Shown: positions 21 to 62,176, counted from the stretch's first letter. The stretch is DNA of 64,000 bases from Dehalococcoidia bacterium (GCA_965201145.1 CBDAVT010000002.1:2203380-2267379); one strand, 5' to 3'. Translations and numbers: made by a program. Notes: generated by a model not told the origin, from the letters alone.

Positions 21-203
21 CAGGGCTATCGCATATGAAAAAATTTCAGGCTCAGAACGGAACTTTCCGATGTTTTGGCGGCGCTTTACTGGGTAATCAA
101 CATCAAAACCAACGGTTTAAGTCTTAAATTACCCAAATTTAGCAGTTAAAAACGGAGATTTACCCGTCAATTGGCCTCTTAAATTCCATATGCGATAGCC
201 CTG
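21..203 (+). mobile_element. 183-bp MITE-like element, copy 1 (variant A)
   Basis: Starts CAGGGCTATCGCATATG and ends with its exact reverse complement (17-bp TIR). Flanked by a direct 10-bp duplication TAGGAAGCCC (11-20 and 204-213). No credible internal ORF. Confidence 0.9.
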
Positions 204-210
204 TAGGAAG

Positions 211-247
211 CCCTCACCCCCGGCCCCTCTCCCGCGAGGAGAGGGGA
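211..247. repeat. REP-like GC-rich palindromic element
   Basis: CCCTCACCCCCGGCCCCTCTCCC-GCGAG-GAGAGGGGAG hairpin. Same motif family recurs in at least 12 intergenic sites of the window. Confidence 0.7.
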
Positions 248-337
248 GTAGTTGGCCCGGTTGTTTCCCGGTTCCGCAGGGGGTAAACTTAACCCACTGT
301 CGCAGGGCCGCACAGGTATGAGCGCGAGGTGTGAAAT

Positions 338-1534
338 ATGACTGGACTGCAAGGAACTTATGAACCGCCGGCGCAGTCGCGGGTGACTTTCGGTCAGGGC
401 CGGGCGGAGAATCTGGCGGCGGAACTGGACCGATTGGGCAGCCAGCGAGTAATGGTTTTATCCGGTCGCAGTGTTGCGGAGAAAACCGATACGGTGAATC
501 GAGTGGCTTCGCTGCTGGGCGAGCGCTGTCTGGCCGTCTATTCCAACCTGCCCCAGCGGGCGCCCCTGGCTACCGCCGTTGAGGCGACGCAAATTGCCCT
601 GGATAACCGGGTGGATACGCTGGTTGGCGTGGGGGGCAGCACCATTTCTGACGCGGCCCGGATGATTGGCGTAATGATGGCCGAGGGCATTACTACCGAG
701 GCTGAATTGCGGGAACGGGGGCATCAAGGCGGGGGGAACTTTCGCTCCAACGCCGCCGGTGAGCAACTGCCCTGGCAGGTGTCCATTCCGACAACCCTGT
801 CCGCCGGCGAATTCAACGTGGGCGGCGGCAATGTCCTGGACGACCGGGCCGGGCATAAAATCAGGGTTCGGCACCCCGACCTCTACGCCCATTTAATCGT
901 CTTGGACCCGGACCTGACCGAAGGCACTCCCGACTGGCTTTGGCTGTCCAGCGGGGTCAAGGCGCTGGACCACTGTATCGAACGGCTCTACTGCCGGGGC
1001 AGCCAGCCGGCTACCGACGCTACCACTGCCAAGGCGGCGGAACTGCTGCTGTCCAATCTGCCCAATTCCAGAGAGGCGATGGGCAATTCCGAAGCTCGCT
1101 TGAACTGTCTGCTGGGCGCCTGGCTGTCGATGATGGGCGCGCCCAGCGTGGGGTCCGGACTCAGCCACGCCATCGGCCACGTCATCGGAGTCAAGTACAG
1201 CGTGGGCCACGGTTACACTTCCTGCGTAACCCAGCCCTACGTGATGGAATTCAACCGTCCGGCTTCGGCGGACAAGCAAGCCTTGCTGGCTCAGGCCGCC
1301 GGTCTGGACACCCGGGATCTGGGGGATGAAGCGGCGGCGGCCGCGGTGGCCCGGGTAGTCGATGACTTCATTATGGATCTGGGAATGCCCCACCGACTGC
1401 GGGAGCTGGAGATACCCCGGGAAGACCTGCCGGAAATCGCCCGGCTTACCCTGGAGGACGGCCCGGCGCGCAACAACCCGGTTCAGGTTTCCGAACCGGA
1501 GGAACTGCTGCCCCTGCTGGAAAAGGCGTGGTAG
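338..1534 (+). CDS. iron-containing alcohol dehydrogenase family protein (maleylacetate reductase-like)
   Basis: 398-aa ORF. Has the Fe-ADH glycine stretch GVGGSTISDAAR and His cluster SHAIGHVIG...GH. Neighbours are a dienelactone hydrolase and a lactonase. Confidence 0.8.
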   Translation: MTGLQGTYEPPAQSRVTFGQGRAENLAAELDRLGSQRVMVLSGRSVAEKTDTVNRVASLLGERCLAVYSNLPQRAPLATAVEATQIALDNRVDTLVGVGGSTISDAARMIGVMMAEGITTEAELRERGHQGGGNFRSNAAGEQLPWQVSIPTTLSAGEFNVGGGNVLDDRAGHKIRVRHPDLYAHLIVLDPDLTEGTPDWLWLSSGVKALDHCIERLYCRGSQPATDATTAKAAELLLSNLPNSREAMGNSEARLNCLLGAWLSMMGAPSVGSGLSHAIGHVIGVKYSVGHGYTSCVTQPYVMEFNRPASADKQALLAQAAGLDTRDLGDEAAAAAVARVVDDFIMDLGMPHRLRELEIPREDLPEIARLTLEDGPARNNPVQVSEPEELLPLLEKAW

Positions 1535-1833
1535 GGAAAAGAAGTTCAGGCATTTAACGGGCAGATCAAGGGTTTGCCCGCCGCCGTTGCTTGACTTGCC
1601 AGGGATTTCATAAAGTCCGGGCCGGACGGCGGGAAGGTGAGGTCAATCGTCAACCTCCGGCTTCCGGCAAATCCTGAAGCCCCGGTAGTCGCGGTTGGCG
1701 GCGCCGGAGACCTGGTCGCGACCGGGGCCGGGGATAATCCCCAACTCCGGCCGCCAATCTGCTACAATTCACCTGCCGGCCCGAGTCGGGCCCGGCGCAA
1801 CAGCGCCACGACAATAAAACGGAGGTATGCGCA

Positions 1834-2547
1834 ATGCCGTCTTTTACCGACAAGTTGACCGTCAACGGGGAAGAAATGGAGATGTACGCCGCGGTTCCCA
1901 GCGGTTCGGGGCCTTTTCCCGCCGTGGTAATCGCCTTTCACGTCGGCGGAATGGATGAGTTTGACAAGGTTATGGCCGACCGGTTCGCCGAGGAAGGCTA
2001 TGTCGCCGTGGTTCCCGACCTGTTCCACCGCTTCAGCGAAGAGGTTATGGCCGGCCCCCGTCTGGACCGGCTGGGCCACCTCAACGACCCGGACATCATC
2101 GCCGATATGAATGCCGCCGTGGACTTTCTCACTAATAATTCGGCCGTCGACAACGAGCGCATCGGCGTTACCGGGTTCTGCATGGGCGGGCGCATTGCCT
2201 GGCTGATGGCCGCGGTCAATCCCATTTTCAAGGCCACCGTCCCCTTCTACGGCGGCAACATTATGGGCATTTGGGGCGATGCCGAGCAGACGCCCTTTGA
2301 ATTGGCCGACGGCATCAACTGCCCGATGCTGTTCCATTTTGGCGAGATTGACCGCAACCCGTCGCAGGAGGATATGGTCAAGCTTGACGCCGAGTTGACC
2401 CGGCTGGGCAAGGAACATATCTTCCACACCTACCCCGGCGCCGACCATGCCTTTATGGACTGGACGGGAGCGCGCCACAACGAGGAAGGCGCCGCCCTGG
2501 CCTGGCCCAGGACGATCGAGTTCTTTAACCAGTACCTGAAGGGGTAA
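1834..2547 (+). CDS. dienelactone hydrolase family protein
   Basis: 237-aa ORF. Has the alpha/beta-hydrolase nucleophile elbow GFCMGG (Cys nucleophile typical of DLH) and C-terminal GADHAF His motif. GGAGG RBS 8 nt upstream. Confidence 0.8.
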   Translation: MPSFTDKLTVNGEEMEMYAAVPSGSGPFPAVVIAFHVGGMDEFDKVMADRFAEEGYVAVVPDLFHRFSEEVMAGPRLDRLGHLNDPDIIADMNAAVDFLTNNSAVDNERIGVTGFCMGGRIAWLMAAVNPIFKATVPFYGGNIMGIWGDAEQTPFELADGINCPMLFHFGEIDRNPSQEDMVKLDAELTRLGKEHIFHTYPGADHAFMDWTGARHNEEGAALAWPRTIEFFNQYLKG

Positions 2548-2694
2548 GAGCGGGCACCCCGCCAGGGTAGGGAACGTGCCGGCTGGTCTGCCGCTTCAGG
2601 AGCGCCGCTAACGGTCCGCTGGCGAGCCAGCCCTTGCGGAGTGAGGCAATATCGTTGCAACGGAACGTCACAGGATGTTAAAACCGGACTCCTG

Positions 2695-10172: not shown

Positions 10173-11949
10173 CTAATTTCCTGAATCCCGGTCGCCTTGC
10201 TCGGAGACGTGTCGAAATATTTGCTCATGGGCATACTCTTGAGCCTCGAACAAATCAACCAAATCTCTAATACTATTAACGTACAATCTCTTGTTATCGG
10301 CATTGTTAATCCTTAACTCTTCCAGTGTCAGCTTATTCCGCTTAATTCCGTTGCAAGTACGGTGGAGTAATGCCAGATTATAGAGTTCATCATTTCCTTG
10401 CATCCCTTCATTTGCTTTCCTGGCCCGGATGTGGTCAACTTCCAGCAGGGTATCATCCAGAGTTCCGTTGGGCCGGTAGGGTTTGTAGCCGCAACCCCAA
10501 CAGACCGGGCCAAATCGGTCCATCAGTAGCTTCTTGGCTTCCTCTTTGGGTATGCGCCCGGACCATGTAGAGGATTGTGATGGCAGTTTCTGCCCTTTCT
10601 TACGTTGTGAGATGTTGTAGAAAGGAGCGGGATCTATATCAGTACGCTTGGGCAATTGATCTGGGCCAATAGTATATGAAGTTGACTGTTGCAGTTCGGT
10701 TTGATGTTCTCCTAACGCTTTGTGTGTGCTGTTGGTCGTGTCAGAAAGGGCAAAACCATTTAAGTAAAACCTCCGTTTGAGCATAGTCCACGCTCTATAT
10801 GCCATGTCGCAAGCCAACCATCTACGGTTTAGTCTTTCAGCTGCGATGGCAGTTGTAGCACACCCGGCAAATATGTCCAAAACAACGTCGCCAGGATTAC
10901 TAGAAACTCGTATAATACGCTCATAGAGGTCTAATGGCTTTTGCGTGGCGTACCCGGTTTCCTCCAGCCTCCTTTTAACCAGTTGGTAGGCATATAGCTG
11001 TTTAATGTCGCTCCAAACTGTAGATAGTGGAACACCTTTGGATTCATCTAAATATTGAGTTTCTGTATTACCGTTAGGTCGTTTCCTTGTACGGAAGCGG
11101 CGGCCATCACCGTCTTTGTAGATGAAACGTTCACTGACGTACTTGTCTGAGTATGGGAGATAGATAGGATTGCAGGGCTATCGCATATGAAAAAATTTCA
11201 GGCTCAGAACGGAACTTTCCGATGTTTTGGCGGCGCTTTACTGGGTAATCAACATCAAAACCAACGGTTTAAGTCTTAAATTACCCAAATTTAGCAGTTA
11301 AAAACGGAGATTTACCCGTCAATTGGCCTCTTAAAATCCATATGCGATAGCCCTGGATAGGATTGTAAGTATGTTTACCGCCATTCCTAGCGTAGAATAA
11401 AAGCGTATCATGCGCTTTGACCTGTTTTGCTCCCCCTGCTCTTCCTCCTGACGGCGTACCATAACTCCACACGATTTCGTTCACCATATTGTTCGCTCCG
11501 AACACGGCATCTAATAACATACGCAAATAGCTGTTCGCATGGCTGTTACAGTGAACATATATACTACCTGTATCCTTTAGTATGCGTCTGCACTCGATTA
11601 ATCGGACTGCCATAAAAGCAATGTATGCCGCTTCGTTATCAGTCGCGCACGCTTCGACAGCTTGGATTACAGCATGGATGGCAGGATAATCATCTTGTAT
11701 TCGCATCTTCCATGTCGGATGCACGTCATCGTCCCAGTTCCAAACGTCCTTTACTCGTGTCTCTCCAATACCTTCGTTATGAGCGACACGATGCTCACGT
11801 GCTAAAGCCTTTTCTTCTTGTAGCTCAGCAGGTGTTATGGGGGGGTTAGGCTTTCTTTTGAACGTTTCATTAGCAGCAAATGGTGGGTCTATGGCAATAA
11901 GGTCAACGCACTCGTTGTTAAGGGACCGAAGGAACGTTAAGTTATCCAT
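10173..11949 (-). pseudogene. DNA methyltransferase (N4/N6, DPPF motif) fused to a C-terminal HNH nuclease domain, interrupted by a MITE
   Basis: N-terminal part has IAIDPPF (motif IV). After the MITE the same frame continues (YLPYSDKYVSERF...VLDIFAGCATT, motif I). The C-terminus has HNH-like EVDHIRARK...LALLHRTCNGIKRNK. Removing 11173-11355 plus one TSD restores one 527-aa ORF. Confidence 0.85.
11173..11355 (+). mobile_element. 183-bp MITE-like element, copy 2 (variant A)
   Basis: Same TIRs. 10-bp TSD GATAGGATTG (11163-11172 and 11356-11365). Lies inside the methyltransferase coding sequence. Confidence 0.9.
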
Positions 11950-16125: not shown

Positions 16126-16130
16126 AGTAT

Positions 16131-16170
16131 GCCCTCACCCCCGGCCCCTCTTCCCGAGGAAGAGGGGAGA
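16131..16170. repeat. REP-like palindromic element
   Basis: GCCCTCACCCCCGGCCCCTCTTCCCGAGGAAGAGGGGAGAG, immediately after the stop of the preceding gene. Confidence 0.7.
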
Positions 16171-18252: not shown

Positions 18253-18293
18253 CCTCTTCCCTCTCCCTGGGGGAGAGGGGCCGGGGTGAGGGC
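18253..18293. repeat. REP-like palindromic element
   Basis: CCTCTTCCCTCTCCCTGGGGGAGAGGGGCCGGGGTGAGGGC. Confidence 0.7.
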
Positions 18294-30106: not shown

Positions 30107-30272
30107 AACCGCAGCCTCAAAGATTTATCAGGCGTGTCCTGGCTGAAGATTCGCCAACAGCCAATTACGTTAGACTAACGCCTAAAATTGTAAGCCAAAC
30201 CCCCGAAAATTTGCAAAGGGTCTGATACCCATTTCACCTCAACTCTCTTCTAAAGAAGAGAACAAAACCAAT

Positions 30273-30311
30273 CTCCCCTCTCCTCGCGGGAGCGGGGCCG
30301 GTGGTGCGGGC
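30273..30311. repeat. degenerate REP-like element
   Basis: CTCCCCTCTCCTCGCGGGAGCGGGGCCGGTGGTGCGGGC. Confidence 0.5.
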
Positions 30312-30353
30312 TGGCGATACAATTTGGTACTTCCCAATAACTGATACACGGTA

Positions 30354-41453: not shown

Positions 41454-41636
41454 CAGGGCTATCGCATATGGATTTTAAGAGGCCAATTGACGGGTAAATC
41501 TCAGTTTTTAACTGCTAAATTTGGGTAATTTAAGACTTAAACCGTTGGTTTTGATGTTGATTACCCAGTAAAGCGCCGCCAAAACATCGGAAAGTTCCGT
41601 TTTGATCCTGAAAATTTTTCATATGCGATAGCCCTG
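41454..41636 (-). mobile_element. 183-bp MITE-like element, copy 3 (variant B, inverted)
   Basis: Same TIRs. 10-bp TSD GGGAAGGGGT (41444-41453 and 41637-41646). Lies about 220 nt upstream of the SBP start. Confidence 0.9.
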
Positions 41637-47779: not shown

Positions 47780-48718
47780 TTATTGCACTACCCCGGCCCC
47801 GTGGCGGCCGGTGTCCGCGGCCCGGTACAGGCTGCCCCCGGTGGTAGTCACGTACAGGTCGCCGCCATCCGGGCCGCCAAAGGCGCAGTTGGTGGGCGTT
47901 TCGGGCAGTCGATGCGACTCCAGAATGCGGCCCGTGGGCGTCAAGACGTAGGCCATCGGTCCCGGCCCGGATCCCTCGCCGCCAGCCACCGCTACTATGT
48001 TGCCGGCATCGTCCAGACACATACCATAGATGCCCCGTTGGACTCCCCGGCGGCCGCTTCCATCGTCCTGGCCGAAGGTGTGCAGCAGCCGATAGGGGCC
48101 CAGCGCGCCGCTCTCCAGAATGGGATAGGCCCGCAGCTCCCGCCTTCCTTCCGGGGCTTCGCTGCTTTCGGCCACGTACAAGACATCTTCCTCCGGCGCC
48201 AGCAGGAGGGCCATAGGCGCATCGGTATCGTAGGTCATTCGGGTAATGGGCGCATCCAGCCCCGACTCGGGGGATTCCAGCCGCAGCACCGAAGCGTGGT
48301 CGAGCTTATCGTGAATCTGGGGATTCATCGCCTCCCGCAGGTCGCCGTGAGGGTCGCAGAACCAGATTCGGTCCGACCCGTCCACCAGCAAATCCCGGGG
48401 TTGGTTGTGGTACACGCCATTCAGTTTGTGCGCCAGGGGCGAAGTGCTGCCGTCGGCATTGAACCGCACCAGCCGGCGGCCGCCGCTTTGGGCCCCGTAA
48501 AGGACACCGGAGCGGGAGAAGGCCAGCCCGCAGGTTCGGTTGGTCCAACGGCGAAAATCGGCAACTTGTCCCGAATCGGGGGCGTAGCGGAGGATGCGGT
48601 TGTTGGCGGCGTTGAAGGGGAAGGTCAACTGCGTGAACAGCAGCGCTTCCCCGTCCCAAACGGGCCCGTCGGTGGGACTGCCGAAGGGCCCGGCCACCGG
48701 TTGAAAATCCCAGTTCAC
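47780..48718 (-). CDS. SMP-30/gluconolactonase/LRE-family beta-propeller protein
   Basis: 312-aa ORF with the family-like pattern PTDGPVWDGEALLFT, RPNDL-like QPRDLLVDGSDRIWFCDP, and GPDGGDLYVTT. Confidence 0.7.
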   Translation of the reverse strand: MNWDFQPVAGPFGSPTDGPVWDGEALLFTQLTFPFNAANNRILRYAPDSGQVADFRRWTNRTCGLAFSRSGVLYGAQSGGRRLVRFNADGSTSPLAHKLNGVYHNQPRDLLVDGSDRIWFCDPHGDLREAMNPQIHDKLDHASVLRLESPESGLDAPITRMTYDTDAPMALLLAPEEDVLYVAESSEAPEGRRELRAYPILESGALGPYRLLHTFGQDDGSGRRGVQRGIYGMCLDDAGNIVAVAGGEGSGPGPMAYVLTPTGRILESHRLPETPTNCAFGGPDGGDLYVTTTGGSLYRAADTGRHGAGVVQ

Positions 48719-48801: not shown

Positions 48802-48984
48802 CAGGGCTATCGCATATGAAAAATTTTCAGGATCAAAACGGAACTTTCCGATGTTTTGGCGGCGCTTTACTGGGTAATCAACATCAAAACCAACGGTTTA
48901 AGTCTTAAATTACCCAAATTTAGCAGTTAAAAACTGAGATTTACCCGTCAATTGGCCTCTTAAAATCCATATGCGATAGCCCTG
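48802..48984 (+). mobile_element. 183-bp MITE-like element, copy 4 (variant B)
   Basis: Same TIRs. 10-bp TSD GGCGGGGTGG (48792-48801 and 48985-48994). Lies in a divergent intergenic region. Confidence 0.9.
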
Positions 48985-49150
48985 GGCGGGGTGGGTCATT
49001 ACACGCTCATTGGTGAATTAATGCATCTACTTACAGGACCCCGGCAGGTCTGCGCTAATCTGAAGGATTGGTTGAATTATCTCACTGCCAATGCTAATCT
49101 GCCTGCAAACACCGATGGACGACACCAGAAATAAGAGAAGGTGAGCAGCG

Positions 49151-50107
49151 ATGGCGGAAAGGCGAATTGGCGTGGCGGCAATGGGCGGTGACAGTCGGGC
49201 GGTGGTGTCCCGGATTCAGCAACTGGAAGAGCTGGGCATTGCCGCGGCCTGGCTGACTTCCGGCGGCGCCGGGCCGGATGCGCTGACCACCTTTGCCGCC
49301 GCCGCGGCCACTACCGAGCGCATTCTGCTGGGTACCAGCATTATTCCCACTTACCCGAGGCATCCTATCGTGGCGGTGCAGCAAACGCAGGTAGTGGCCC
49401 AGTTGGCGCCGGGACGGTTCCGGCTGGGTTTGGGCCCCAGCCACAAGGTCAGCATTGAACCGATGTACGGCATAGAACATCACGCCCCCTTGACCAACCT
49501 GCGGGAGTATATCCAGGTGGTGAAGGCGCTGCTCTGGGAAGGTCAGGTGGATTTTGACGGCGCCCAGTATCACGGGCACGGAGCGCTGCCGGGCGCGCCG
49601 GCCCCGGATGTGCTGGTAATGGCATCGGCGCTGCGCCGCCGTTCTTTCCGGCTGTGCGGCGAGGTGGCCGACGGGGCCATCAGCTGGGTCTGCCCCGGCC
49701 AGTACCTCCGGGATGTGGCTTTGCCGGAGTTGCAGCGCGGCGCGGCGGAGGCCGCTCGTCCAACGCCGCCGTTGATTGCCCACGCCCCGGTTTGCGTCCA
49801 CGAGAACCTGGAGGAAGTTCGGGAGGCGGCCCGGGCGCAGTTAGCCAACTACCCCCGGTCGCCCTTCTACCAGGAAATGTTCGCCGCCTCAGGCCATCCC
49901 GAAGCCCGGGACGGGACCTGGAGCGACGGTATGCTGGAGGATGTGGTTTTCATGGGCGATGAAGATACGGTAGCCGGCCGGATTCGGGAGTTGTTTGACT
50001 GGGGCGCGACGGAAATTCTGGCCCACCCCATCACCGCCGGCAGCGACCCGGCAGCCTCCATGAACCGCAGCCTGAACCTGATTGCGACGGTGGGTCAGGG
50101 GCTGTAG
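49151..50107 (+). CDS. LLM-class F420-dependent oxidoreductase
   Basis: 318-aa ORF with the luciferase-like pattern (LGTSIIPTYPRHP, RFRLGLGPSH). Confidence 0.8.
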   Translation: MAERRIGVAAMGGDSRAVVSRIQQLEELGIAAAWLTSGGAGPDALTTFAAAAATTERILLGTSIIPTYPRHPIVAVQQTQVVAQLAPGRFRLGLGPSHKVSIEPMYGIEHHAPLTNLREYIQVVKALLWEGQVDFDGAQYHGHGALPGAPAPDVLVMASALRRRSFRLCGEVADGAISWVCPGQYLRDVALPELQRGAAEAARPTPPLIAHAPVCVHENLEEVREAARAQLANYPRSPFYQEMFAASGHPEARDGTWSDGMLEDVVFMGDEDTVAGRIRELFDWGATEILAHPITAGSDPAASMNRSLNLIATVGQGL

Positions 50108-53449: not shown

Positions 53450-53564
53450 GGCGGCCGTCCTTAGTTTTAGAGTAGGGTAAAGGTTCGAAATAGGGGACAT
53501 TTTCCGGAGTATGTCGGGCATTATAACCAGCGGGCCGGGCCGGGGCAATTGCCGGTGCGGGACG

Positions 53565-53639
53565 GCCCTCACCCCTCACCCCGCTCCCCCAGGGAGAGGG
53601 GCCGGGGTGAGGGCTTCCCCCTGGCCGGGAGTGAGGGCC
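53565..53639. repeat. compound REP-like palindrome
   Basis: GGCCCTCACCCCTCACCCCGCTCCCCCAGGGAGAGGGGCCGGGGTGAGGGC...GGGAGTGAGGGCC. Confidence 0.7.
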
Positions 53640-53713: not shown

Positions 53714-54175
53714 ATGGACATGGGCGACATCGCCGCCATTGCTGCCATCTCCACCGTATTTCTCGCCATAGTCGGACTTTCGGCCACGGCCATTTTCCGT
53801 ATCGGCAAACTGACCGAGGCCACGGACAGGATACCGGAAGAGTTCCGCGCCGAACTCCAGACCGTGGAAGCTCGCAACGAAGAACGCTTCCAGCGAGTAG
53901 ATGACCGTTTCCAGTATATGGAGGCCTTGAATGAAGAACGCTTCCGACGCATGGAAGAGCGTATGGAAGAACGCTTCCAGCGTATGGAAGAGCGTATGGA
54001 AGAACGCTTCCAGCGTATGGAAGATCTCATTCACCATAACGAGGAGTTAATTCGTTCCGAGAGTGAACGAATTCAGGGGCAGATTCTCATTTTGCAGCAA
54101 GCGATAATGACCCACTCCCACGACCAGGACGGCAACGTCATGTTTCGGGTTCCTATGCCTGATACTGAGGAATAG
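53714..54175 (+). CDS. N-terminally membrane-anchored coiled-coil protein with 11-residue EERFQRMEERM repeats
   Basis: 153-aa ORF. TM helix IAAIAAISTVFLAIVGLSATAIF. 33-bp DNA tandem repeat units at 53933, 53966 and 53999. Confidence 0.6.
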   Translation: MDMGDIAAIAAISTVFLAIVGLSATAIFRIGKLTEATDRIPEEFRAELQTVEARNEERFQRVDDRFQYMEALNEERFRRMEERMEERFQRMEERMEERFQRMEDLIHHNEELIRSESERIQGQILILQQAIMTHSHDQDGNVMFRVPMPDTEE

Positions 54176-54193
54176 TTCCGCCTGTTTGCAGAC

Positions 54194-54332
54194 GGCCCTC
54201 ACCCCTCTCCCCGGAAGCCCTCACCCCTAACCCCTCTCCCGCGAGGCGAGGGGGACTTTGGGCAAACTCTCCCCTCTCCTCCAGGGAGAGGGGCCGGGGG
54301 TGAGGGCTTCCCCCTGGCCGGGGGTGAGGGCC
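54194..54332. repeat. cluster of REP-like palindromes
   Basis: Three nested or adjacent copies of the CCCTCACCCC / CCCCTCTCC ... GGAGAGGGGCCGGGGGTGAGGG motif, between two convergent genes. Confidence 0.7.
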
Positions 54333-54447: not shown

Positions 54448-57400
54448 CTAGCCGTTGTCCAGGGTGAACTTGAACTGGCCGCTGGCCGTGCCTCCGTTGG
54501 AGTCCGTGGCCGTTATCTTGATAGTCAACTCCTGGGAGGCGGCTCCTCCGGCGGTCAGCGTTAGCGTGCTGCCCGACCAGGAACCCGTTACCTTGTTCCG
54601 GGCGATCTCGTTCAGCTTCCCGGTTTTGACCGCTCCGGTGCGCTGGTGGGTGGTGGTCACCTCAACTGCGTAGGTCAGGCCGTCGCCGCTGAAGTGGCTG
54701 GTCATATCCAGCGCGCTGGTTTCGCCTTCCGACAACTCAACGTCGTCGAACTCGTCAATCAGCGTTGCCGGGTTATCCGGCTCCGGGGTAGGTTCCGGAG
54801 TGGGCTCGGGCGTAGGCTCCGGGGTCGGTTCCGGAGTAGGCTCGGGCGTAGGCTCCGGGGTCGGTTCCGGAGTAGGCGCAGGCGTAGGCTCCGGGGTAGG
54901 TTCCGGAGTGGGCTCGGGCGTAGGCTCCGGGGTCGGTTCCGGAGTGGGCTCGGGAGTAGGCTCGGGGGTGGGTTCCGGAGTAGGCGCAGCCGTCGGTTCC
55001 GGCGTGGCCGGGGGAACCGCAACCAGCGTCAGCGTGAAGTCGTCGCTGGCGGTGCCACTGTTCTCGTCGGTAGCCGTGATGGCGATGGTCAGCGACTGCA
55101 AGGCCGCCGGGCCGCCGGTCAGGGTCAGGACGCTGCCGTCCCACGCGCCGGTTACCTTGTTGACCGCAATCGTGTTGAGTTCGCCGGTCTTCTGGTTGCC
55201 GGTGCGCTGGTTGGTGGTGGTAACCATCACCTGGTAGGTGAGGCCGGCCCCTCTGAAGTGGTCGTCCATATCAAGGGCCTGCTCGCCGCCGTTCCAGATG
55301 TCCAGGTCATCGAAAGCGGCAATCAGCGTCGCATCCGGCCCTGGCGTGGGATCCGGCGTCGGCGCAGGCGTGGGTTCCGGGGTCGGTTCCGGGGTAGGCG
55401 CTGCCGTCGGCTCCGGGGTGGGTTCCGGGGTTGGCGCTGGCACTGCCGTTGCGGTGGGCACTGGCGTGGCCGTGGCGGTCGGTCCCGGCGCGGTTGTGGG
55501 CGCCGGCGTCGTCGCCTCGGTCGTCAGGCCGCTCACTTCCACCGTAAAGTCGCCGGCGGTGGAGCTGTAGAACGTCGTCGCTTCGATCGTGTAGGTCCCG
55601 GCGGACAGCGTTCTGGTTATCTGTGAGTTGGTATAAACGCCGCCGTCATCGTTTTCCTCGATTACGCTGCCGTTCGTACCCTCGCCCGAAAGCAGGTACA
55701 TATATGCGTCCCGTCCGATTATAAAGTCGCCCGGTGTGGTTGGATCCGGGACATCGGCCGGAACGATGAGGTCGATCTGAACTTCAGACTCCTCGCTGAG
55801 GGTGAAGCTGTAGTACTTGGCGTAAGCGCCCGGGGGACGATTGGCGGAACCGCAAGAGCTGTCCCAGGTACCCTCCACCGTAACGCTGTCCGAGGACTGG
55901 TCCAGGGCCTCTACCACACAGCCTGGCATGGGCGTTGGCGTCGGCTCAGGCGTGGGCTCGGGCGTCGGTTCCGGCGTGGGGGTTGGTGTCGGCGTCGGTG
56001 GAAGCTCAGGCGTCCCCTCTACCGTGCCGATGGCGAGAACGTTGTCGTCCGAGTCCAGGGCCACAACTTCAACGCTGTAGAGCTGATCCGCCGTCAGGCC
56101 GCTGATGGCGTGGGCATTGGCGGAATCGGTGGCAACGCGGGCGCTGTATGGGCCGATCACCTTCTGGACGACGCCGTTGTTGTCGATCTCATTAACCTCG
56201 CCCCAGCGGATGCTGTGTGCGGCAGCGCCGCTGAACGCGGTCCAGCTGATGGAGAGCGATGTTCCGTCGCCGCCGTCGGTTGCCGTCAAGCTATCAATCT
56301 GTGGGACGATGGGGGTTATCCCGCTGTCGGGCGGGCCGCCCGGCGCGGTTCCTTGCGGCTTGCCGGTCAGTAGAGCCGAGGGGACACGGAGCTGGACATA
56401 GTTGTTGTTGCCCCAGCAGCGGGTCTTGCCCGTGCTGGTGATTGCGCAGGCGTGCTCCTTGCCGACGTCGACGCGCACATACCGCTCGTCATCCGGCGGA
56501 TGCGTCAGACCCTTCGGGCGGTAAGTGTAGATGCCGTTCTCGTTGAAGTACACGTAGACCGGCATCGAATCGACCCGCTCGAACTTGGCGTAGCCGTAGT
56601 GCGTGCCGCCGATAGTGTAGCCGGACGAGCGCTCCCACCAGAAGTCCGTTTCGTCCGTGTCCGTCGCGCCGCGGTTCAGGCGGTCGTTGTTGTACCACGA
56701 CACCTGGAATGGCTCGCTGGAGCCGGTCCAATCGAAAGTCGTGGGACTGGTGCCGTCCCAGAGCGTCAACTGCTCGCCGATGTGCCACGAGGCGTTCCAG
56801 CAGCGGATGTGCCCCTCCAGCCGGGTGGCGCAGATGCCGCCCGGGCCCATGCCGACGGAGGTGTAGGCCCCGTTGGGCATAAAGTTGCCCCGGTCAAAGG
56901 GATAATCCCGGCCGGACACGGCGCCGCTGCCGAATTCAAAGCAGTCCAGCCCGAGGTCGTGGGCGATGAGACAGAGGGTATTGTTGGAAACTTCCAACGC
57001 ATCAAGGCTGTAGAGCTCCGCTCGTTTGATGGCCGGACCGCCACCCAATGACGAGATATCAGGGCCCTGGATCGAAACGCGCTGGTCGCCATCCCCTCTG
57101 CTGCTCGGCGAGTCGGCGCAGCGGGCCGCTCTGAGGTCAAGACCCCCAAAGGACGCGGTGTCCGGTATCAGACCACAGGTGAAATTGCCCCAGTCGTCCA
57201 CTGCGAGCTTGACTATATTATGATTCGCTTCGTGCGGGAAGTCTCCCTGCTTCGGGGTGCTGTCCTTGAAGCATATAGGCTGGTTACTATCCTCCTGTAC
57301 CAGACAGGCGTGGCGCCCGCCGACGGCAACGTCCTTCACGTTAGGGTAGGCAGTGCCGCTGCTGTCGGATATGATGGTGCCGATTTTTTTGCCGAGGGAC

Positions 57401-59259
57401 TCTCGGGAGTATCCCTTGCCCCAGCAGACCGCGTTCTTGCCGGCGGTGATGCCGCAGGTGATCGAGTCCCCGGCGGAGACTGCGTCCCAGTGGTACTTCG
57501 TGCCGTTGAGGTCGGTCGGGACGTTCGTTTCGCCGTAGGTGTTCTTGCCCCAGCAGACCAGCGCGCCTCTGCCGTGGTTCAGCGCGCAGGTGTGGTAGAA
57601 GCCGGCGCTGATGTCCACATCGCCCTGCATGATCGGGGAGGCGGCATCGCCGAACAGGCTCAGGTCATGCACCGTCGGGTAGTTGGTTTCGTACCCCTCC
57701 ATATAGACGACGAAAGATTTTCGGGCTGGTTCCCCGGCCGGAGGCGCGTTGTGACGTGTGCAGGTGATGCGTATGTTGTCGCCACCGATGGGGGTGTCGA
57801 GATGCTCAGAGCAAATCACGCCCGATGAGGTTTTCACCCCTCCCGGCAGGACGGCGGCGTAGCGATAGCCGCCGGGCATCTCCGCCACCGCGGGCTGGAT
57901 CTTGACATACTCCCCGTCAGACCATTCGTGCATGTACTCCGGGGCGTTCAGCCGGAAGCGGTAGCCGTCCCACTTGGGCCAGACCATCTCATCGGTTCCG
58001 TGCCAGTCGCCGGCCTTGCCGTCGTAGTTCCAGTCGGACCAGTACTGCGGGGCAACGACGCCGTCGTACAAGCCCTTGTTGCCGTGATCGCCGGTGCCGC
58101 TGCCGTCGCCGTCGCTCATGATCAGCTGGATCCTGATCCGCTTGTCGCGGTTCTGGACCATATCCTCAGACATGCTCATGCGCAGGTAGTTGACGCCGTC
58201 GTTCATATAGCCTGGGCCGATGGGGCAGCCCTTGGCGTACTTTTTCCCTTTGTAGACGTAGCTGCCGGGCCGCACTGTCGGCTCGCGGCGCGTTTCGTCA
58301 TAAACTATGGTGTCCTGGTGACAGGGGCCCGTAATGAGCCGGAGGGGGCCCGAATCGGGCTCGCCATCCTTCGGCGTCGGCACAGAGGCGTGGTGCTGCC
58401 AGTAGTCCCGCTGATCCCACTGGCTGTCGAAGTAGCCGTTGGAGTTGGCGTAGTTGATCTGGACGTAGATGCCCTTGATGTAGCGGGCGGGCGGCGGATT
58501 GTCGAACTTCCAGGCGATGGTGAAGCCGCGCTTGCCGTCTTCCGGCTCAACGTCAACGTAGTTGAGCCAGGCGTCAAAGCCCATAGGGTCTGGGTTCGCC
58601 TCGGCCGGCTCCAGGTTGAACAGGCAACTAGCCAAATCCGCTCCTGCGACTGAGTTCAACCCGGCGTTCTTTCCGCCCGGCACACTCGCAACCGGGATGT
58701 CATCGTGGTCCGGGACGGTTACGCCGATGGAGTTCTTGAGGTGATACTCATGGTAGGCGTATTGGGTGCCCTCTACTTGGTTTGATACGTCTCCCCGGGC
58801 GGTATCTGCATTGCCGGAGATATACCAGCCCTTGGGTAGGTTCGAGCCTAGGTACTGATACTTGTACCCCACATAGTCCGCGGTGCTCAGGGCATCGGGG
58901 ATGTCCCAGCCGCAGACCACCACCGGGTCGGTGTCCGTGGTGATGTCCTTGTAATGGACGGTGACCTCCATGTCCAGGTCCGAGTTGGCGCCCTGGCCGA
59001 AGGTCCCCAAGTTCAGCGTGCGGTCCTTCAGCGTGAACTTGGTGCCGACGCCGTAGTAGTCCTCGTCGTTATAGTTGTTGGTTCCCGAGGTGTGGCGCCC
59101 GTCGCGGAAGAAGGTGTCTTCCTGCAGGGACGGCGTGGCGCCGTACTGCACCAGCACTTCGTCCAGGACAACGTGGTTATTGCTGTCGCTGGTGTCGGTC
59201 AGCTTGATGACGATCGTCAGCCCGCCGGCGCCGCCATTGGGCGGGTCGAGGCTGGGCAC
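54448..59259 (-). CDS. giant secreted multidomain protein (main reading frame)
   Basis: 1603-aa ORF. Contains RCC1-like repeats (C.L...G...CWG.N.YG), an FN3-like segment, a pre-peptidase C-terminal (PPC)-like domain (YYSFTLSEES...TYTIEATTF), three PT/PEPT linkers and two about 100-aa Ig/cadherin-like repeats at the C-terminus. It has no signal peptide of its own. Confidence 0.8.
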   Translation of the reverse strand: MPSLDPPNGGAGGLTIVIKLTDTSDSNNHVVLDEVLVQYGATPSLQEDTFFRDGRHTSGTNNYNDEDYYGVGTKFTLKDRTLNLGTFGQGANSDLDMEVTVHYKDITTDTDPVVVCGWDIPDALSTADYVGYKYQYLGSNLPKGWYISGNADTARGDVSNQVEGTQYAYHEYHLKNSIGVTVPDHDDIPVASVPGGKNAGLNSVAGADLASCLFNLEPAEANPDPMGFDAWLNYVDVEPEDGKRGFTIAWKFDNPPPARYIKGIYVQINYANSNGYFDSQWDQRDYWQHHASVPTPKDGEPDSGPLRLITGPCHQDTIVYDETRREPTVRPGSYVYKGKKYAKGCPIGPGYMNDGVNYLRMSMSEDMVQNRDKRIRIQLIMSDGDGSGTGDHGNKGLYDGVVAPQYWSDWNYDGKAGDWHGTDEMVWPKWDGYRFRLNAPEYMHEWSDGEYVKIQPAVAEMPGGYRYAAVLPGGVKTSSGVICSEHLDTPIGGDNIRITCTRHNAPPAGEPARKSFVVYMEGYETNYPTVHDLSLFGDAASPIMQGDVDISAGFYHTCALNHGRGALVCWGKNTYGETNVPTDLNGTKYHWDAVSAGDSITCGITAGKNAVCWGKGYSRESLGKKIGTIISDSSGTAYPNVKDVAVGGRHACLVQEDSNQPICFKDSTPKQGDFPHEANHNIVKLAVDDWGNFTCGLIPDTASFGGLDLRAARCADSPSSRGDGDQRVSIQGPDISSLGGGPAIKRAELYSLDALEVSNNTLCLIAHDLGLDCFEFGSGAVSGRDYPFDRGNFMPNGAYTSVGMGPGGICATRLEGHIRCWNASWHIGEQLTLWDGTSPTTFDWTGSSEPFQVSWYNNDRLNRGATDTDETDFWWERSSGYTIGGTHYGYAKFERVDSMPVYVYFNENGIYTYRPKGLTHPPDDERYVRVDVGKEHACAITSTGKTRCWGNNNYVQLRVPSALLTGKPQGTAPGGPPDSGITPIVPQIDSLTATDGGDGTSLSISWTAFSGAAAHSIRWGEVNEIDNNGVVQKVIGPYSARVATDSANAHAISGLTADQLYSVEVVALDSDDNVLAIGTVEGTPELPPTPTPTPTPEPTPEPTPEPTPTPMPGCVVEALDQSSDSVTVEGTWDSSCGSANRPPGAYAKYYSFTLSEESEVQIDLIVPADVPDPTTPGDFIIGRDAYMYLLSGEGTNGSVIEENDDGGVYTNSQITRTLSAGTYTIEATTFYSSTAGDFTVEVSGLTTEATTPAPTTAPGPTATATPVPTATAVPAPTPEPTPEPTAAPTPEPTPEPTPAPTPDPTPGPDATLIAAFDDLDIWNGGEQALDMDDHFRGAGLTYQVMVTTTNQRTGNQKTGELNTIAVNKVTGAWDGSVLTLTGGPAALQSLTIAITATDENSGTASDDFTLTLVAVPPATPEPTAAPTPEPTPEPTPEPTPEPTPEPTPEPTPEPTPEPTPAPTPEPTPEPTPEPTPEPTPEPTPEPTPEPTPEPDNPATLIDEFDDVELSEGETSALDMTSHFSGDGLTYAVEVTTTHQRTGAVKTGKLNEIARNKVTGSWSGSTLTLTAGGAASQELTIKITATDSNGGTASGQFKFTLDNG
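54777..55008. repeat. coding microsatellite-like repeat (18-bp period) encoding PEPTPE linker
   Basis: GGCTCCGGGGT(A/C)GGTTCCGGAGT(G/A)GGCTCGGGCGTA reiterated. Shorter versions lie at about 55330-55500 and 55925-56000. Confidence 0.8.
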
Positions 59260-59693: not shown

Positions 59694-59697
59694 CTTA

Positions 59698-59946: not shown

Positions 59947-59968
59947 TTTTCCGAGGAAGGGGTAAGGG

Positions 59969-60481
59969 CTAGTCCAAAGTAAGCACCAGGGTCAGCAGGG
60001 CGCTAACCGTTGCAATCACCATCGCCGCCGAGCCGCCAACAATGGCATAAAAGAGCCGGTCGATTCGGGAATTAACACTCTGCTGCATGGCATCAATCCG
60101 GGCGGACACCAAATCAATCCGAGTGTCCATACTTTGCTGCAGGGCATCAATCCGGGCGTCCATACTCTGCTGCAGGGAGATTATCAGGGCATTTGTCGCC
60201 CGCTGGTCCTCCCGCAGCTCGGACACTGCCGTCTCCACCCCCGTCAGCCGGGCATTCGTTTCCCGCTGGTCCTCCCGCAGCTCGGACACTGCCGTCTCCA
60301 CTCCCGTCAGCCGGGCATTCGTTTCCCGCTGGTTGGCCTGCATCTCCCCGCGCAGCTCCACCAGGCCCGTCTCTACCCCCGTTAGCCGGGAATTGGTTTC
60401 CCGCAAATCGTCCCGCAGGTCTGCAACCGAGTGCTCTACCGCCGTCATCCGTTCCGACAAGTCATCCGTAGTTGTTACCAT
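59969..60481 (-). CDS. tail-anchored coiled-coil protein, tandem paralog 1
   Basis: Start at MVTTTDDLSERMTAVE (AGGAGA RBS). Modular 11/21/25-aa repeats (RLTGVETAVSELREDQRETNA). C-terminal TM LFYAIVGGSAAMVIATVSALLTLVLTLD. Confidence 0.7.
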   Translation of the reverse strand: MVTTTDDLSERMTAVEHSVADLRDDLRETNSRLTGVETGLVELRGEMQANQRETNARLTGVETAVSELREDQRETNARLTGVETAVSELREDQRATNALIISLQQSMDARIDALQQSMDTRIDLVSARIDAMQQSVNSRIDRLFYAIVGGSAAMVIATVSALLTLVLTLD

Positions 60482-60512
60482 GGTTTTATCTCCTGATTGA
60501 GCTATGCCAACC

Positions 60513-60540
60513 ACTATACCGGATACCGGCCCATTGTCAA
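60513..60540 (-). promoter_or_regulatory. sigma70-type promoter of paralog 1
   Basis: Minus-strand TTGACA-N16-TATAGT, about 30 nt upstream of the start codon. Conserved upstream of all four paralogs. Confidence 0.6.
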
Positions 60541-60570
60541 TCCACTGGGCCAAGGGGAGCGAAACAAAAT

Positions 60571-60608
60571 TCCCCTCTCCTCGCGGGAGAGGGGCCGGGG
60601 GTGAGGGC
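60571..60608. repeat. REP-like palindrome
   Basis: TCCCCTCTCCTCGCGGGAGAGGGGCCGGGGGTGAGGGC. Confidence 0.7.
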
Positions 60609-60628
60609 TTCCTGGGAAGGGGTAAGGG

Positions 60629-61048
60629 CTAGTCCAAAGTAAGCACCAGGGTCGGCAGGGCGCTAACCGTCGCAATCACCATAGCCGCCGAGCCGCCAAC
60701 TATGGCATAAAAGAGCCGGTCAATGCGGGAATTAACACTCTGTTGCAAGGTTTCAATCCGGGCGGCCATCTCGCTCTGCAAGGAATCGATCCGGGAGGTC
60801 ATCTCGCTTTGTAAGGTATCAATCCGGGAGGTCACGCCATCGATCCGGGCGTCCACACTTTGTTGCAGGGAGATTATCAGGGTATTCGTCGCCCGCTGGT
60901 CCTCCCGCAGCTCGGACACTGCCGTCTCCACCGCCGTCAACCGGGCATTGGTTTCCCGATGGTTGGCCTGCATCTCCCCCCGCACCTCCAACACCGAGTG
61001 TTCCACCGCCGTCATCCGTTCCGACAAGTCATCCGTAGTTGTTACCAT
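60629..61048 (-). CDS. tail-anchored coiled-coil protein, tandem paralog 2
   Basis: Same N-terminus, RBS (GGAGGAAAGGAAACT) and C-terminal TM as the others. Different set of internal modules. Confidence 0.7.
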   Translation of the reverse strand: MVTTTDDLSERMTAVEHSVLEVRGEMQANHRETNARLTAVETAVSELREDQRATNTLIISLQQSVDARIDGVTSRIDTLQSEMTSRIDSLQSEMAARIETLQQSVNSRIDRLFYAIVGGSAAMVIATVSALPTLVLTLD

Positions 61049-61079
61049 AGTTTCCTTTCCTCCGTAAGTTCTGCCAACC

Positions 61080-61107
61080 ACTATACCGGATACCGGCCCA
61101 TTGTCAA
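61080..61107 (-). promoter_or_regulatory. sigma70-type promoter of paralog 2
   Basis: Minus-strand TTGACA-N16-TATAGT. The MITE copy 5 boundary is 19 bp upstream of the -35. Confidence 0.6.
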
Positions 61108-61126
61108 TCCACCGCAGTACCCGGCC

Positions 61127-61309
61127 CAGGGCTATCGCATATGGATTTTAAGAGGCCAATTGACGGTTAAATCTCCGTTTTTAACTGCTAAATTTGGGTA
61201 ATTTAAGACTTAAACCGTTGGTTTTGATGTTGATTACCCAGTAAAGCGCCGCCAAAACATCGGAAAGTTCCGTTCTGAGCCTGAAATTTTTTCATATGCG
61301 ATAGCCCTG
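61127..61309 (-). mobile_element. 183-bp MITE-like element, copy 5 (variant A, inverted)
   Basis: Same TIRs. TSD (A)GTACCCGGCC (61116/61117-61126 and 61310/61311-61320). Confidence 0.9.
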
Positions 61310-61317
61310 AGTACCCG

Positions 61318-61433
61318 GCCCTCACCCCTAGCCCCTCTCCCACGAGGCGAAGGGGAACTTTGGCGGATAAGCCGGCTACTGCCCCAAACATAAACTCCCC
61401 TTTCCCCCAGGGAGAGGGGCCGGGGGTGAGGGC
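61318..61433. repeat. compound REP-like doublet
   Basis: CCCTCACCCCTAGCCCCTCTCCC...spacer...CCCCTTTCCCCCAGGGAGAGGGGCCGGGGGTGAGGGC. The same doublet occurs at 62185-62297 and 54215-54310. Confidence 0.7.
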
Positions 61434-61477
61434 TTTCGGGACGGGGCCGAGCTTTCGGGAGGAGAAGGGGGTAGGAG

Positions 61478-61915
61478 CTAGTCCAAAGTAAGAACCAGGG
61501 TCAGCAGGGCGCTAACCGTCGCAATCACCATAGCCGCCGAGCCGCCAACAATGGCATAAAAGAGCCGGTCAATGCGGGAATTAACACTCTGTTGCAGGGA
61601 GATTATCAGACCATTCGTCGCCCTCTGGTCCTCCCGCAGCTCGGACACCGCCGTCTCCACCGCCGTCAACCGGGCGTTGGTTTCCTGCAAATCACCCCGT
61701 ACCTCCAATACCGAGTGTTCCACCGCCGTCATCCGGGCATTGGTTTCCCTCTGGTTGGCCTGCATCTCCCCGCGCAACTCCACCAAGCCCGTCTCCACCG
61801 CCGTCATCCGAGCGTTGGTTTCCCGATGGTTGGCCTGCATCTCCCCGCGCAACTCCACCAGGCCCGTCTCCACCGCCGTCATCCGTTCCGACAAATCATC
61901 CGTAGTTGTTACCAT
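61478..61915 (-). CDS. tail-anchored coiled-coil protein, tandem paralog 3
   Basis: Same termini. Contains two TGLVELRGEMQAN(H/Q)RETNARMTAVE modules. Confidence 0.7.
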   Translation of the reverse strand: MVTTTDDLSERMTAVETGLVELRGEMQANHRETNARMTAVETGLVELRGEMQANQRETNARMTAVEHSVLEVRGDLQETNARLTAVETAVSELREDQRATNGLIISLQQSVNSRIDRLFYAIVGGSAAMVIATVSALLTLVLTLD

Positions 61916-61946
61916 AGCTTCCTTTCCTCCGTAAGCTCTGCCAACC

Positions 61947-61974
61947 ACTATACCTGATACCGGTCCATTGTCAA
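61947..61974 (-). promoter_or_regulatory. sigma70-type promoter of paralog 3
   Basis: Minus-strand TTGACA-N16-TATAGT. The MITE copy 6 boundary is 19 bp upstream of the -35. Confidence 0.6.
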
Positions 61975-61993
61975 TCCACCGCAGTACCCGACC

Positions 61994-62176
61994 CAGGGCT
62001 ATCGCATATGAAAAAATTTCAGGCTCAGAACGGAACTTTCCGATGTTTTGGCGGCGCTTTACTGGGTAATCAACATCAAAACCAACGGTTTAAGTCTTAA
62101 ATTACCCAAATTTAGCAGTTAAAAACGGAGATTTACCCGTCAATTGGCCTCTTAAATTCCATATGCGATAGCCCTG
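61994..62176 (+). mobile_element. 183-bp MITE-like element, copy 6 (variant A)
   Basis: Same TIRs. 10-bp TSD GTACCCGACC (61984-61993 and 62177-62186). Confidence 0.9.

Follow-up and report, generated by a model that had tools for sequence, protein, structure and literature searches.

Bacterial MITEs are exemplified by the Correia elements of Neisseria and RUP of Streptococcus pneumoniae, and ISs that target REPs include IS1397 and ISKpn1, both of the IS3 family, as well as IS110-family elements in Pseudomonas REPs. MaeMITEa-h of Microcystis are likewise bacterial MITEs (PMC2779907). Among the ISs themselves, the ISAs1 family is the one that bears most directly on the element described here, and its named members include ISAs1, IS1358, the E. 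coli H-repeat/YbfD-YdcC elements, ISArsp11, and ISPmar4. The family has IRs of 14-22 bp starting with CAGGG and a 10-bp DR (PMC11946415), and ISArsp11 has the IR CAGGGCTGATGCAAAGTCG, with the start CAGGGCTGATGC, and a 10-bp DR (PMC6305408). In the literature that we searched, we found no ISAs1 mechanism or target rule and no description of ISAs1-derived MITEs, and the TIR CAGGGCTATCGCATATG studied here was absent in that context.

Here, we analyzed a 64-kb stretch of DNA (64,000 nucleotides, hereafter the window) from an uncultured Dehalococcoidia bacterium (Chloroflexota), where six 183-bp units very probably constitute a MITE family that is of the ISAs1 type by its ends and is driven by a partner IS of the same genome. 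What the comparisons below establish is how the element is built, that its copies are insertions, to which family its ends belong, and that a partner IS exists. We found that the 17-mer CAGGGCTATCGCATATG occurs 12 times in the window, compared to 0.16 in shuffled sequence, and that these occurrences form six inverted pairs at the coordinates given in a preliminary description of this DNA, which had proposed six 183-bp copies with exact TIRs. The 17-mer is a perfect TIR at both ends of all six copies, and every unit is 183 bp long:

21..203, plus strand: MITE copy 1, variant I; TSD TAGGAAGCCC at 11-20 and 204-213
11173..11355, plus strand: MITE copy 2, variant I with A at position 164; TSD GATAGGATTG at 11163-11172 and 11356-11365
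41454..41636, minus strand: MITE copy 3, variant II; TSD GGGAAGGGGT
48802..48984, plus strand: MITE copy 4, variant II; TSD GGCGGGGTGG
61127..61309, minus strand: MITE copy 5, variant I; 11-bp TSD AGTACCCGGCC at 61116-61126 and 61310-61320
61994..62176, plus strand: MITE copy 6, variant I; TSD GTACCCGACC at 61984-61993 and 62177-62186

Copies 3 and 5 are inverted compared to the other four. When all six are oriented alike, they are 97-100% identical and vary only at positions 23, 31, 35, 134, 143, and 164. As the preliminary description had it, there are two variants, and copies 3 and 4, which share the second, are identical to each other; copies 1 and 6, both of variant I, are also identical. 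All TSDs are intact and no two are alike. A 10-bp TSD had been claimed at every copy, and this is the case for five of the six, while copy 5 has 11 bp.

The element has a G+C content of 41%, compared to 60% for the window. ORFs that lie wholly inside it are 24-36 aa long and incidental, the longer listed ORFs enter from the flanks, and a 30-aa ORF that starts in the TIR has no record among the called genes. tblastn detected no ISAs1 transposase within the window, in agreement with the earlier statement that it contains no transposase. No further partial copies of the 183-bp element were found in the window. Folding, which the preliminary description had suggested as a check, showed that either strand of the unit forms a highly stable hairpin (-64 and -69 kcal/mol, z about -8), in which the A+T-rich 133-bp interior and the TIRs make up one long imperfect structure. 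We treat the 133-bp interior as filler with no demonstrated function.

The position of five copies agrees with the earlier placement of five out of six in 5' regulatory regions, but we found no evidence for a regulatory role. An Fe-alcohol-dehydrogenase gene (338-1534) follows copy 1 at a distance of 135 bp, and the TSD of this copy adjoins a REP-like box, CTCACCCC, at 213. Copy 3 is flanked by genes for a 4Fe-4S protein (41801-43072) and a solute-binding protein (39105-41234) and lies in the intergenic gap between them. Copy 4 also occupies an intergenic gap, whose flanking genes diverge: an SMP-30/gluconolactonase-like gene on the minus strand (47780-48718) and a gene for a luciferase-like monooxygenase on the plus strand (49151-50107). 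Copy 5 is located 20 bp upstream of the -35 hexamer of a coiled-coil paralog gene with a consensus-like promoter; here, too, the TSD adjoins a REP-like box. Copy 2 is the only one that is not intergenic, as it is found inside a DNA methyltransferase-HNH gene:

10173..11949, minus strand: N6/N4 methyltransferase-HNH gene split by copy 2, with its Pfam domains divided between two ORFs

The N-terminal part of this gene (11366-11949) reads into the MITE and reaches a stop at 11281, while the C-terminal part spans 10173-11172; one ORF retains the N-terminal half of PF01555, and the other retains the C-terminal end of PF01555 together with PF01844. The N-terminal methylase fragment has no record among the recorded proteins that we looked up. 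When copy 2 and one TSD were removed in silico, a 527-aa ORF was restored, which is 76% identical to an intact 526-aa homologue (P0001) and aligns to it without a gap across the insertion point. More than 100 listed homologues cover about 99% of the length of the restored ORF. MITEs inactivate genes, and the gene affected here is of the restriction-modification type.

Copies 5 and 6 lie within a tandem array of paralogous coiled-coil genes, where they occupy the same position upstream of successive paralogs in opposite orientations; a lookup of one coiled-coil paralog among recorded proteins returned no record. Both TSD copies of copy 6 carry A where those of copy 5 carry G. Since the orientations are opposite and the G/A difference is present on both sides, these two copies are independent insertions. 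The array also includes an unoccupied version of the same site, with the fourth paralog's promoter on one side and, at 62869, a REP-like box (CTCACCCC) on the other:

62859..62868, no strand assigned: empty paralogous target site, with a single GTACCCGGCC

In a different assembly (locus L136), a full IS begins at the alignment column where both array MITEs begin, upstream of a homologous paralog promoter. Three independent insertions, two of a MITE and one of an IS, have occurred at one promoter-upstream position. Since an empty paralogous site exists and excision restores the ORF, the TSDs are true duplications. Together, the restored gene, the empty paralogous site at 62859-62868, and the repeated insertions at the same position demonstrate insertion mobility in three ways.

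It could be argued that the units spread by segmental duplication, recombination, or assembly error instead of transposition, and duplication is plausible for copies 5 and 6 since they sit in a tandem paralog array. However, the flanks and the TSD differ at every copy, the array copies are opposite in orientation with G/A differences matched in both TSD halves, and removing a copy restores a reading frame. In addition, an independent short-read assembly reaches the same junctions, with contigs from run SRR33960554 ending 27 nt inside copies 2 and 4. Duplication or assembly error is effectively refuted by these observations. When filled and empty sites were compared by means of the flanking genes, every contig retrieved stopped at or before the MITE; repeats of this kind are precisely where short-read assemblies break. 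No orthologous empty sites were obtained from the closest relative (ProRS 88% identical), where synteny is too weak.

We also considered a domesticated or functional role for the element, as a module (an UP-element or promoter, a terminator, or a structured small RNA) that is selected upstream of genes, in keeping with the five intergenic copies upstream of genes, the two copies that precede the -35 of a consensus-like promoter by 20 bp, and the very stable hairpin on both strands. This is very unlikely, as one copy destroys a gene, the element is present in both orientations at one paralogous site, and a third paralog does without it. The long hairpin is expected of any element made of two diverged inverted halves. 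A consensus scan of copies 5 and 6 revealed no internal sigma-70-like promoter or terminator, and the Rfam 15 covariance models gave no match to a curated RNA family in the whole window at the gathering threshold and none inside copies 5 and 6 at E<=1. Furthermore, putatively RNA-derived contigs begin beyond the MITEs on the downstream side (at about 311-330 and at about 49107-49136) and do not enter them. We therefore continue with the reading of the units as a transposing MITE family.

A MITE requires ends that a transposase elsewhere can use, and ends of this kind are found on complete ISs. One such IS, complete at 1200 bp, comes from a Dehalococcoidia MAG (L076); its 17-bp TIRs are identical to those of the MITE, and its TSD is 10 bp long. 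The 373-aa protein that it encodes reaches 385 bits against the model NF033564 ('ISAs1 family transposase', cutoff 70) and also matches PF13808 and PF01609. Three other loci (L077, L091, and L103) likewise hold full ISs with the CAGGGCTATCGCATATG TIR and 10-bp duplications. The preliminary description had not recognized the TIR as that of any named IS; it is in fact a typical ISAs1-family end, identical to that of a multi-copy IS, so that the novelty of the end is removed while the mobility of the element is kept.

The genome of the window itself also appears to encode such transposases. The window proteins map to a 2,422,633-bp contig. A cluster of 12 transposases (P0144), which is 76% identical to the L076 transposase, includes seven different proteins of 375 aa and three shorter ones whose longest contig is of this same length, and these are therefore apparently encoded on the window's contig. 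P0144 itself has no entry in the contig index, and the one contig returned for the variant P0243 belongs to another assembly. The full-length variants differ from each other by 1-5 residues, and the truncated forms are P0245, P0248, and P0253. P0243 scores 388 bits on NF033564 (cutoff 70), and the IS that encodes it spans 1003-2209 of L136, with a length of 1207 bp and 61% GC; the IS DNA compared here comes from that other assembly, which encodes a protein identical to P0243, and not from the window's own contig. This IS matches the MITE ends exactly over its left 21 nt and its right 24 nt, the variant base at position 164 among them. The match extends over the C-terminus of the transposase (...KFHMR), which has its stop codon within the TIR. 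The right flank of this IS copy is a poly-G run, and no TSD is readable there. The search for a full-length IS with these ends, proposed earlier as a check, yielded a 1207-bp ISAs1 IS, with the P0144 cluster apparently in the same genome. Altogether, an ISAs1 IS with the ends of the MITE appears to be multi-copy on the window's own 2.42-Mb contig.

A simple origin of the MITE by internal deletion of the resident IS was rejected, since the two sequences resemble each other over no more than 21 nt at the left end and 24 nt at the right end. The MITE interior shows no similarity to the IS and differs from it in G+C content (41% vs 61%).

Given these shared ends, the 375-aa DDE transposase of the IS would bind the termini common to the IS and the MITE, and a transposase of the P0144 cluster would move the MITE in trans. 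The element would be joined to staggered cuts 10 bp, or occasionally 11 bp, apart, and repair of these cuts would give rise to the flanking duplications. Recent activity is indicated because the copies are near identical, the TSDs are intact, the gene is freshly broken, and the transposase copies are themselves near-identical. The earlier proposal of a non-autonomous MITE that was recently mobilized in trans by a DDE transposase with cuts of about 10 bp is therefore supported by the unique TSDs, the restored gene, the empty paralogous site, and the matching IS.

Whether the P0144 cluster supplies the mover is a separate matter, since the mover could be another transposase or mobility could have been lost along with any compatible active transposase. 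Only 21-24 terminal nt are common to the MITE and the IS, some of the genomic transposase copies are truncated, and the 17-bp TIR is used in other bacteria by many diverged ISAs1 transposases (37-100% identity), so that another ISAs1 relative could drive the element. On the other hand, at least seven full-length, near-identical variants are apparently present on the window's contig, and the identity of the ends continues past the 17-bp TIR and takes in the variant base at position 164. The IS and the MITEs also share an insertion hot spot, and the copies are 97-100% identical with all TSDs intact. We consider a different or missing mover very unlikely and retain the P0144-cluster IS as the probable driver. 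Our findings assign a repeat that had been an orphan to a family and name its probable driver, and they document a recently active IS/MITE pair in uncultured Dehalococcoidia, a lineage whose mobile elements are little studied.

The REP-like box CTCACCCC is found 18 times in the 64 kb, and three of the six MITE copies adjoin one. These REP-like units form a family in the window that is separate from the A+T-rich MITE with its IS-type TIRs and TSDs; since it has these three properties, the 183-bp element was rejected as a REP/BIME unit, a type of short GC-rich palindrome that lacks TSDs and IS-type ends. Other MITE families with CAGGGCTATCGCATATG ends, of 141 bp and of 170-360 bp, are found in soil metagenomes, Bradyrhizobium, Reyranella, and Dehalococcoidia MAGs. 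MITEs with this TIR are common in soil metagenomes and Alphaproteobacteria, so that the 183-bp element is part of a large and widespread group. Among sites of these related families, 10 out of 23 have the TSD spanned by a stem of 6 bp or more, compared to 4.4% of random positions. Related MITEs often insert at the apex of REP-like hairpins, while the copies in the window lie at the edge of the CTCACCCC box. A search of genome contigs for CAGGGCTATCGCATATG returned at least 114 loci, and none of those listed contains the MITE interior. The interior was also not found in any other loci fetched, its 25-nt core was not found in JGI metagenome contigs, and a search of the PLSDB plasmids gave no match to the 183-bp unit.

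ISAs1-type ends flank many distinct MITE families of soil bacteria and seem to prefer REP-like hairpins. We tentatively raise the possibility, which we regard as less probable than not, that ISAs1-driven MITEs with the CAGGGCTATCGCATATG end form one large group that crosses phyla (Chloroflexota, Alphaproteobacteria, and soil metagenomes), whose shared transposase type might select structured targets instead of random DNA, namely REP-like palindromes, at the apex or the edge, and a fixed site just upstream of strong promoters. If true, this would be an undescribed mode of target selection for ISAs1 and would link REPs and MITEs as two classes of intergenic repeats in bacteria. MITE insertion sites could offer a way to study ISAs1 target choice.

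Judged by its sequence, the 183-bp MITE is an ordinary kind of hitch-hiker transposon that itself appears to be previously uncatalogued in the plasmids, metagenome contigs, and literature compared. Like bacterial MITEs in general, it is small (MITEs measure less than about 600 bp), non-coding, multi-copy, mostly intergenic, and hairpin-forming, with TSDs and with TIRs that match a resident IS; unlike them, it is tied to another IS family, and no resemblance to them in sequence was detected. REP-targeting ISs share with it an apparent preference for repeated extragenic palindromic units, but their transposases are of different families, and the preference is statistical only here (3/6 and 10/23 sites). 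The other families with CAGGGCTATCGCATATG ends have TIRs that are identical or differ at no more than two positions, 10-bp TSDs, and similar sizes, whereas their interiors are unrelated. Compared to an ISAs1 IS, the MITE is 183 bp instead of about 1.2-1.3 kb, lacks a transposase, has an unrelated interior, and resides in an uncultured Dehalococcoidia host, while the IS carries its last transposase codons and stop inside the right TIR. On the other hand, the MITE resembles the ISAs1 family in its CAGGG start, a 17-bp TIR that falls within the family range, its 10-bp duplications, and ends identical to those of ISAs1 elements that score more than 380 bits on NF033564.

We found 12 occurrences of the 17-mer CAGGGCTATCGCATATG in the window, compared to 0.16 matches in shuffled sequence; they form six inverted pairs, each bounding a unit of 183 bp. 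These pairs coincide exactly with the six inverted-repeat MITE copies placed by the preliminary description at starts 21, 11173, 41454, 48802, 61127 and 61994. The near-identity and the two variants that it had reported are also borne out, as the oriented units vary only at positions 23, 31, 35, 134, 143 and 164; copies 21 and 61994 have the same sequence, and copies 41454 and 48802 likewise, together making up the second variant. Two copies (41454 and 61127) are inverted relative to the other four. All six have a direct target-site duplication (TSD) of their own, which has the described length of 10 bp at five of the six sites, while at 61127 it is 11 bp (AGTACCCGGCC). The MITE has a G+C content of 41% compared to 60% for the window, where we detected no further partial copies and where, as claimed earlier, no transposase accompanies the elements: a tblastn search of the window for an ISAs1 transposase was negative.

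Copy 11173 lies inside a gene, splitting an N6/N4 DNA methyltransferase domain between two ORFs: the one to its right encodes the N-terminal half, and the one to its left encodes the end of the domain plus an HNH nuclease domain. When the 183 bp and one TSD copy were removed in silico, both ORFs joined into a single 527-aa frame. The restored protein has thousands of homologues, of which more than 100 among the matches listed span about 99% of its length, and the best of these, P0001 (526 aa), shares 76% identity and aligns gap-free over the insertion point (...HTYNPIYLPYSDKYV... in the restored protein and ...HIYNPIHLPYSEKYI... in P0001 at the junction). Our findings demonstrate that the MITE has inactivated one restriction-modification-type gene of the region. 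The window holds two more genes of DNA-methyltransferase type, which makes the region rich in genes of restriction-modification type:

44042-46786, N6_Mtase-like gene, 914 aa
50156-51097, N6_N4_Mtase gene, 313 aa, adjoining a luciferase-like gene

Two further copies, 61127 and 61994, lie within the following array:

59969-62823, minus strand, tandem array of four paralogous small coiled-coil protein genes (ORFs of 150-194 aa)

Pfam gave only weak sub-threshold matches to these paralogs, such as DUF7310, and every paralog is preceded by a promoter close to consensus (TTGACA-16-TATAGT) and by a GGAGG ribosome-binding site. The two MITEs occupy the same position 5' of two adjacent paralogs in opposite orientations. 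Their TSDs differ, G compared to A, in both halves, so this difference must be older than the two separate insertions. At the next paralog the equivalent sequence contains GTACCCGGCC once and lacks a MITE, leaving an empty site at 62859-62868. From the restored frame, the paralogous empty site and the separate TSDs, the MITE copies are real insertions, one of which disrupted a gene, and the earlier interpretation of a recently active family is upheld. An assembly artefact was excluded, as contigs of an independent short-read assembly (SRR33960554) enter copies 11173 and 48802, stopping 27 nt inside them.

In a scan of genomes, one per species, the matches listed for the 17-mer were mostly from Alphaproteobacteria and Dehalococcoidia MAGs; the ends alone matched, and the MITE interior was absent from all of them. 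At one such locus, L076, two terminal inverted repeats (TIRs) lie 1200 bp apart with a 10-bp duplication outside and a 373-aa ORF inside, which carries PF13808 and PF01609 and scores 385 bits on the NCBIfam model NF033564, 'ISAs1 family transposase' (cutoff 70). The final codons and stop of this ORF (...HMR*) fall within the TIR. Through its ends, the MITE thus belongs to the ISAs1 family.

Searching with the L076 transposase revealed a cluster of 12 members (P0144 cluster; 375 aa, 76% identity), of which seven distinct 375-aa variants, 1-5 residues apart, and three shorter forms are apparently on the window's own contig, as their longest contig has the length, 2,422,633 bp, of the one that carries window proteins. 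The shorter forms, truncated transposase copies outside the window (P0245, P0253 and P0248), include one, P0245, whose C-terminus (...RRSY-QGYRI*) is translated TIR; a nested IS or MITE has therefore interrupted that transposase gene. The transposase P0243 scores 388 bits on NF033564, and we read the DNA of its IS from L136, a contig of another assembly that encodes exactly P0243. The search for a full-length IS with the MITE ends, as proposed earlier, thereby yielded a 1207-bp element (L136 1003-2209) that matches the two ends of the MITE exactly over its first 21 and last 24 nt, including the codons ...KFHMR* and the position-164 base that sets copies 21 and 61994 apart. Past those ends the likeness stops, and the IS has 61% G+C compared to 41% in the MITE interior. 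This 1207-bp ISAs1 element, present in several copies in the same genome, is the probable driver of the MITE. As for the host, the prolyl-tRNA synthetase encoded in the window shares 76-81% identity with proteins from 'Dehalococcoidia bacterium', 'SAR202 cluster bacterium' and 'Chloroflexota bacterium' MAGs, and 88% with its closest relatives, which places the genome among uncultured Dehalococcoidia.

The left flank of the IS in L136 is homologous to the coiled-coil array, and a full 1207-bp element stands 5' of a homologous coiled-coil gene (L136 1-1020 and 1003-2209; ENA ERZ25068762 ctg49162). When aligned, the IS starts in the exact column where MITEs 61127 and 61994 both start, 20 nt 5' of the -35 hexamer in the TTGACA-16-TATAGT promoter; the right flank of the IS is a poly-G run, and the comparison applies to the left flank only. 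Since the column is the same and the target sequences differ, two MITEs and one full IS were inserted independently at one relative position, an outcome expected from one transposase acting on both elements.

On each strand, the whole MITE folds as a single hairpin, long and imperfect, that takes in the TIRs (-64 and -69 kcal/mol, z about -8), in line with the proposal that the transcribed element would fold. Compared as inverted copies, its halves agree in 62 of 98 alignment columns when the TIRs are counted; without them, the alignment score exceeds the mean of the shuffles by about 3 SD and is surpassed by some of them. We found no Rfam family match to the MITE, no sigma-70-like promoter or terminator inside copies 61127 and 61994 by consensus scan, and no gene record for the small ORFs that begin with the ATG in the TIR. 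In runs SRR33991070-100, many contigs (Logan contigs L116, L119, L123, L124, L117 and L132) have an Illumina adapter or poly-A joined, at the contig start or end, to about 311-330 and about 49107-49136, just 5' of start codons and 3' of MITEs. This suggests that the contigs are RNA-derived with untrimmed adapters and that their 5' ends may mark transcript starts; if so, the MITEs at 21 and 48802 would lie outside those mRNAs.

A separate GC-rich REP/BIME-like family (unit roughly AGGAAGCCCTCACCCCCGGCCCCTCTCCCGCGAGGAGAGGGGA) is also present:

REP/BIME-like units in the window
205-248
16126-16169
18253-18293
30260-30312
53560-53616
54193-54311
60557-60613
61313-61434
62179-62299
62854-62897
63860-63884

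These units are single or in inverted pairs, the pairs forming hairpins of about 115 nt, and some are followed by T-runs with a terminator-like look. Only 18 CTCACCCC/GGGGTGAG boxes occur in the 64 kb, and the TSD directly adjoins a CTCACCCC box at three of the six MITE copies (21, 61127 and 61994), for which we roughly estimate a chance of 1e-5 under random intergenic insertion. The empty paralogous site already carries such a box, and the REP-like unit is therefore older than the MITE insertion. Other repeats in the window lie within ORFs:

54448-59259, minus strand, 1603-aa ORF with RCC1 repeats and a PPC domain; long stretches with 12-nt (4-codon) repeat periodicity at 54707-55058, 55301-55508 and 55913-56014
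32101-32256, in-frame 39-nt tandem repeat, within a ZnuA-like 780-aa protein
43483-43710, in-frame 54-nt tandem repeat
53865-54046, in-frame 33-nt tandem repeat

The same TIR and 10-bp TSDs also surround short elements that are otherwise unrelated: 194 bp long in Bradyrhizobium altum, 209 bp in alphaproteobacterial MAGs, and 184 and 225 bp in a Dehalococcoidia MAG. Scanning metagenomes with the right end (23 nt) gave at least 120 loci, and those among the matches listed were mainly a 141-bp family and families of 170-360 bp rather than full ISs; none of the loci listed shared the window MITE interior, nor did a 25-nt core from it match JGI metagenomes. Among the 170-360-bp families, TSDs frequently form the apex of a hairpin, CCCTC(T)CC...GGAG(A)GGG; at 10 of 23 sites the TSD is spanned by a stem of 6 bp or more, compared to 4.4% of random positions. 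Eleven related-family copies (loci L152, L162, L166, L207, L220, L243, L247, L026, L060, L041 and L096) have inverted, not direct, 10-bp flanks, such as ctctccCGCTTGCGGG[element]CCCGCAAGCGggagag, where the element seems to sit between the two halves of a REP-like palindrome whose central dinucleotide is flipped. We tentatively raise the possibility, which we hold to be rather doubtful, that structured targets, either REP-like or close to promoters, are selected by ISAs1-type transposases, which would also be the drivers of a large and uncatalogued group of MITE families spanning phyla.

The literature searched gave no description of ISAs1-derived MITEs or of the CAGGGCTATCGCATATG TIR. Published ISAs1 inverted repeats are 14-22 bp long, start with CAGGG and are accompanied by 10-bp direct repeats (PMC11946415), and the MITE resembles the family in its CAGGG-type ends and 10-bp duplications. 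It is likewise similar to ISArsp11, both in the inverted repeat of that element, CAGGGCTGATGCAAAGTCG, and in its 10-bp direct repeat (PMC6305408).
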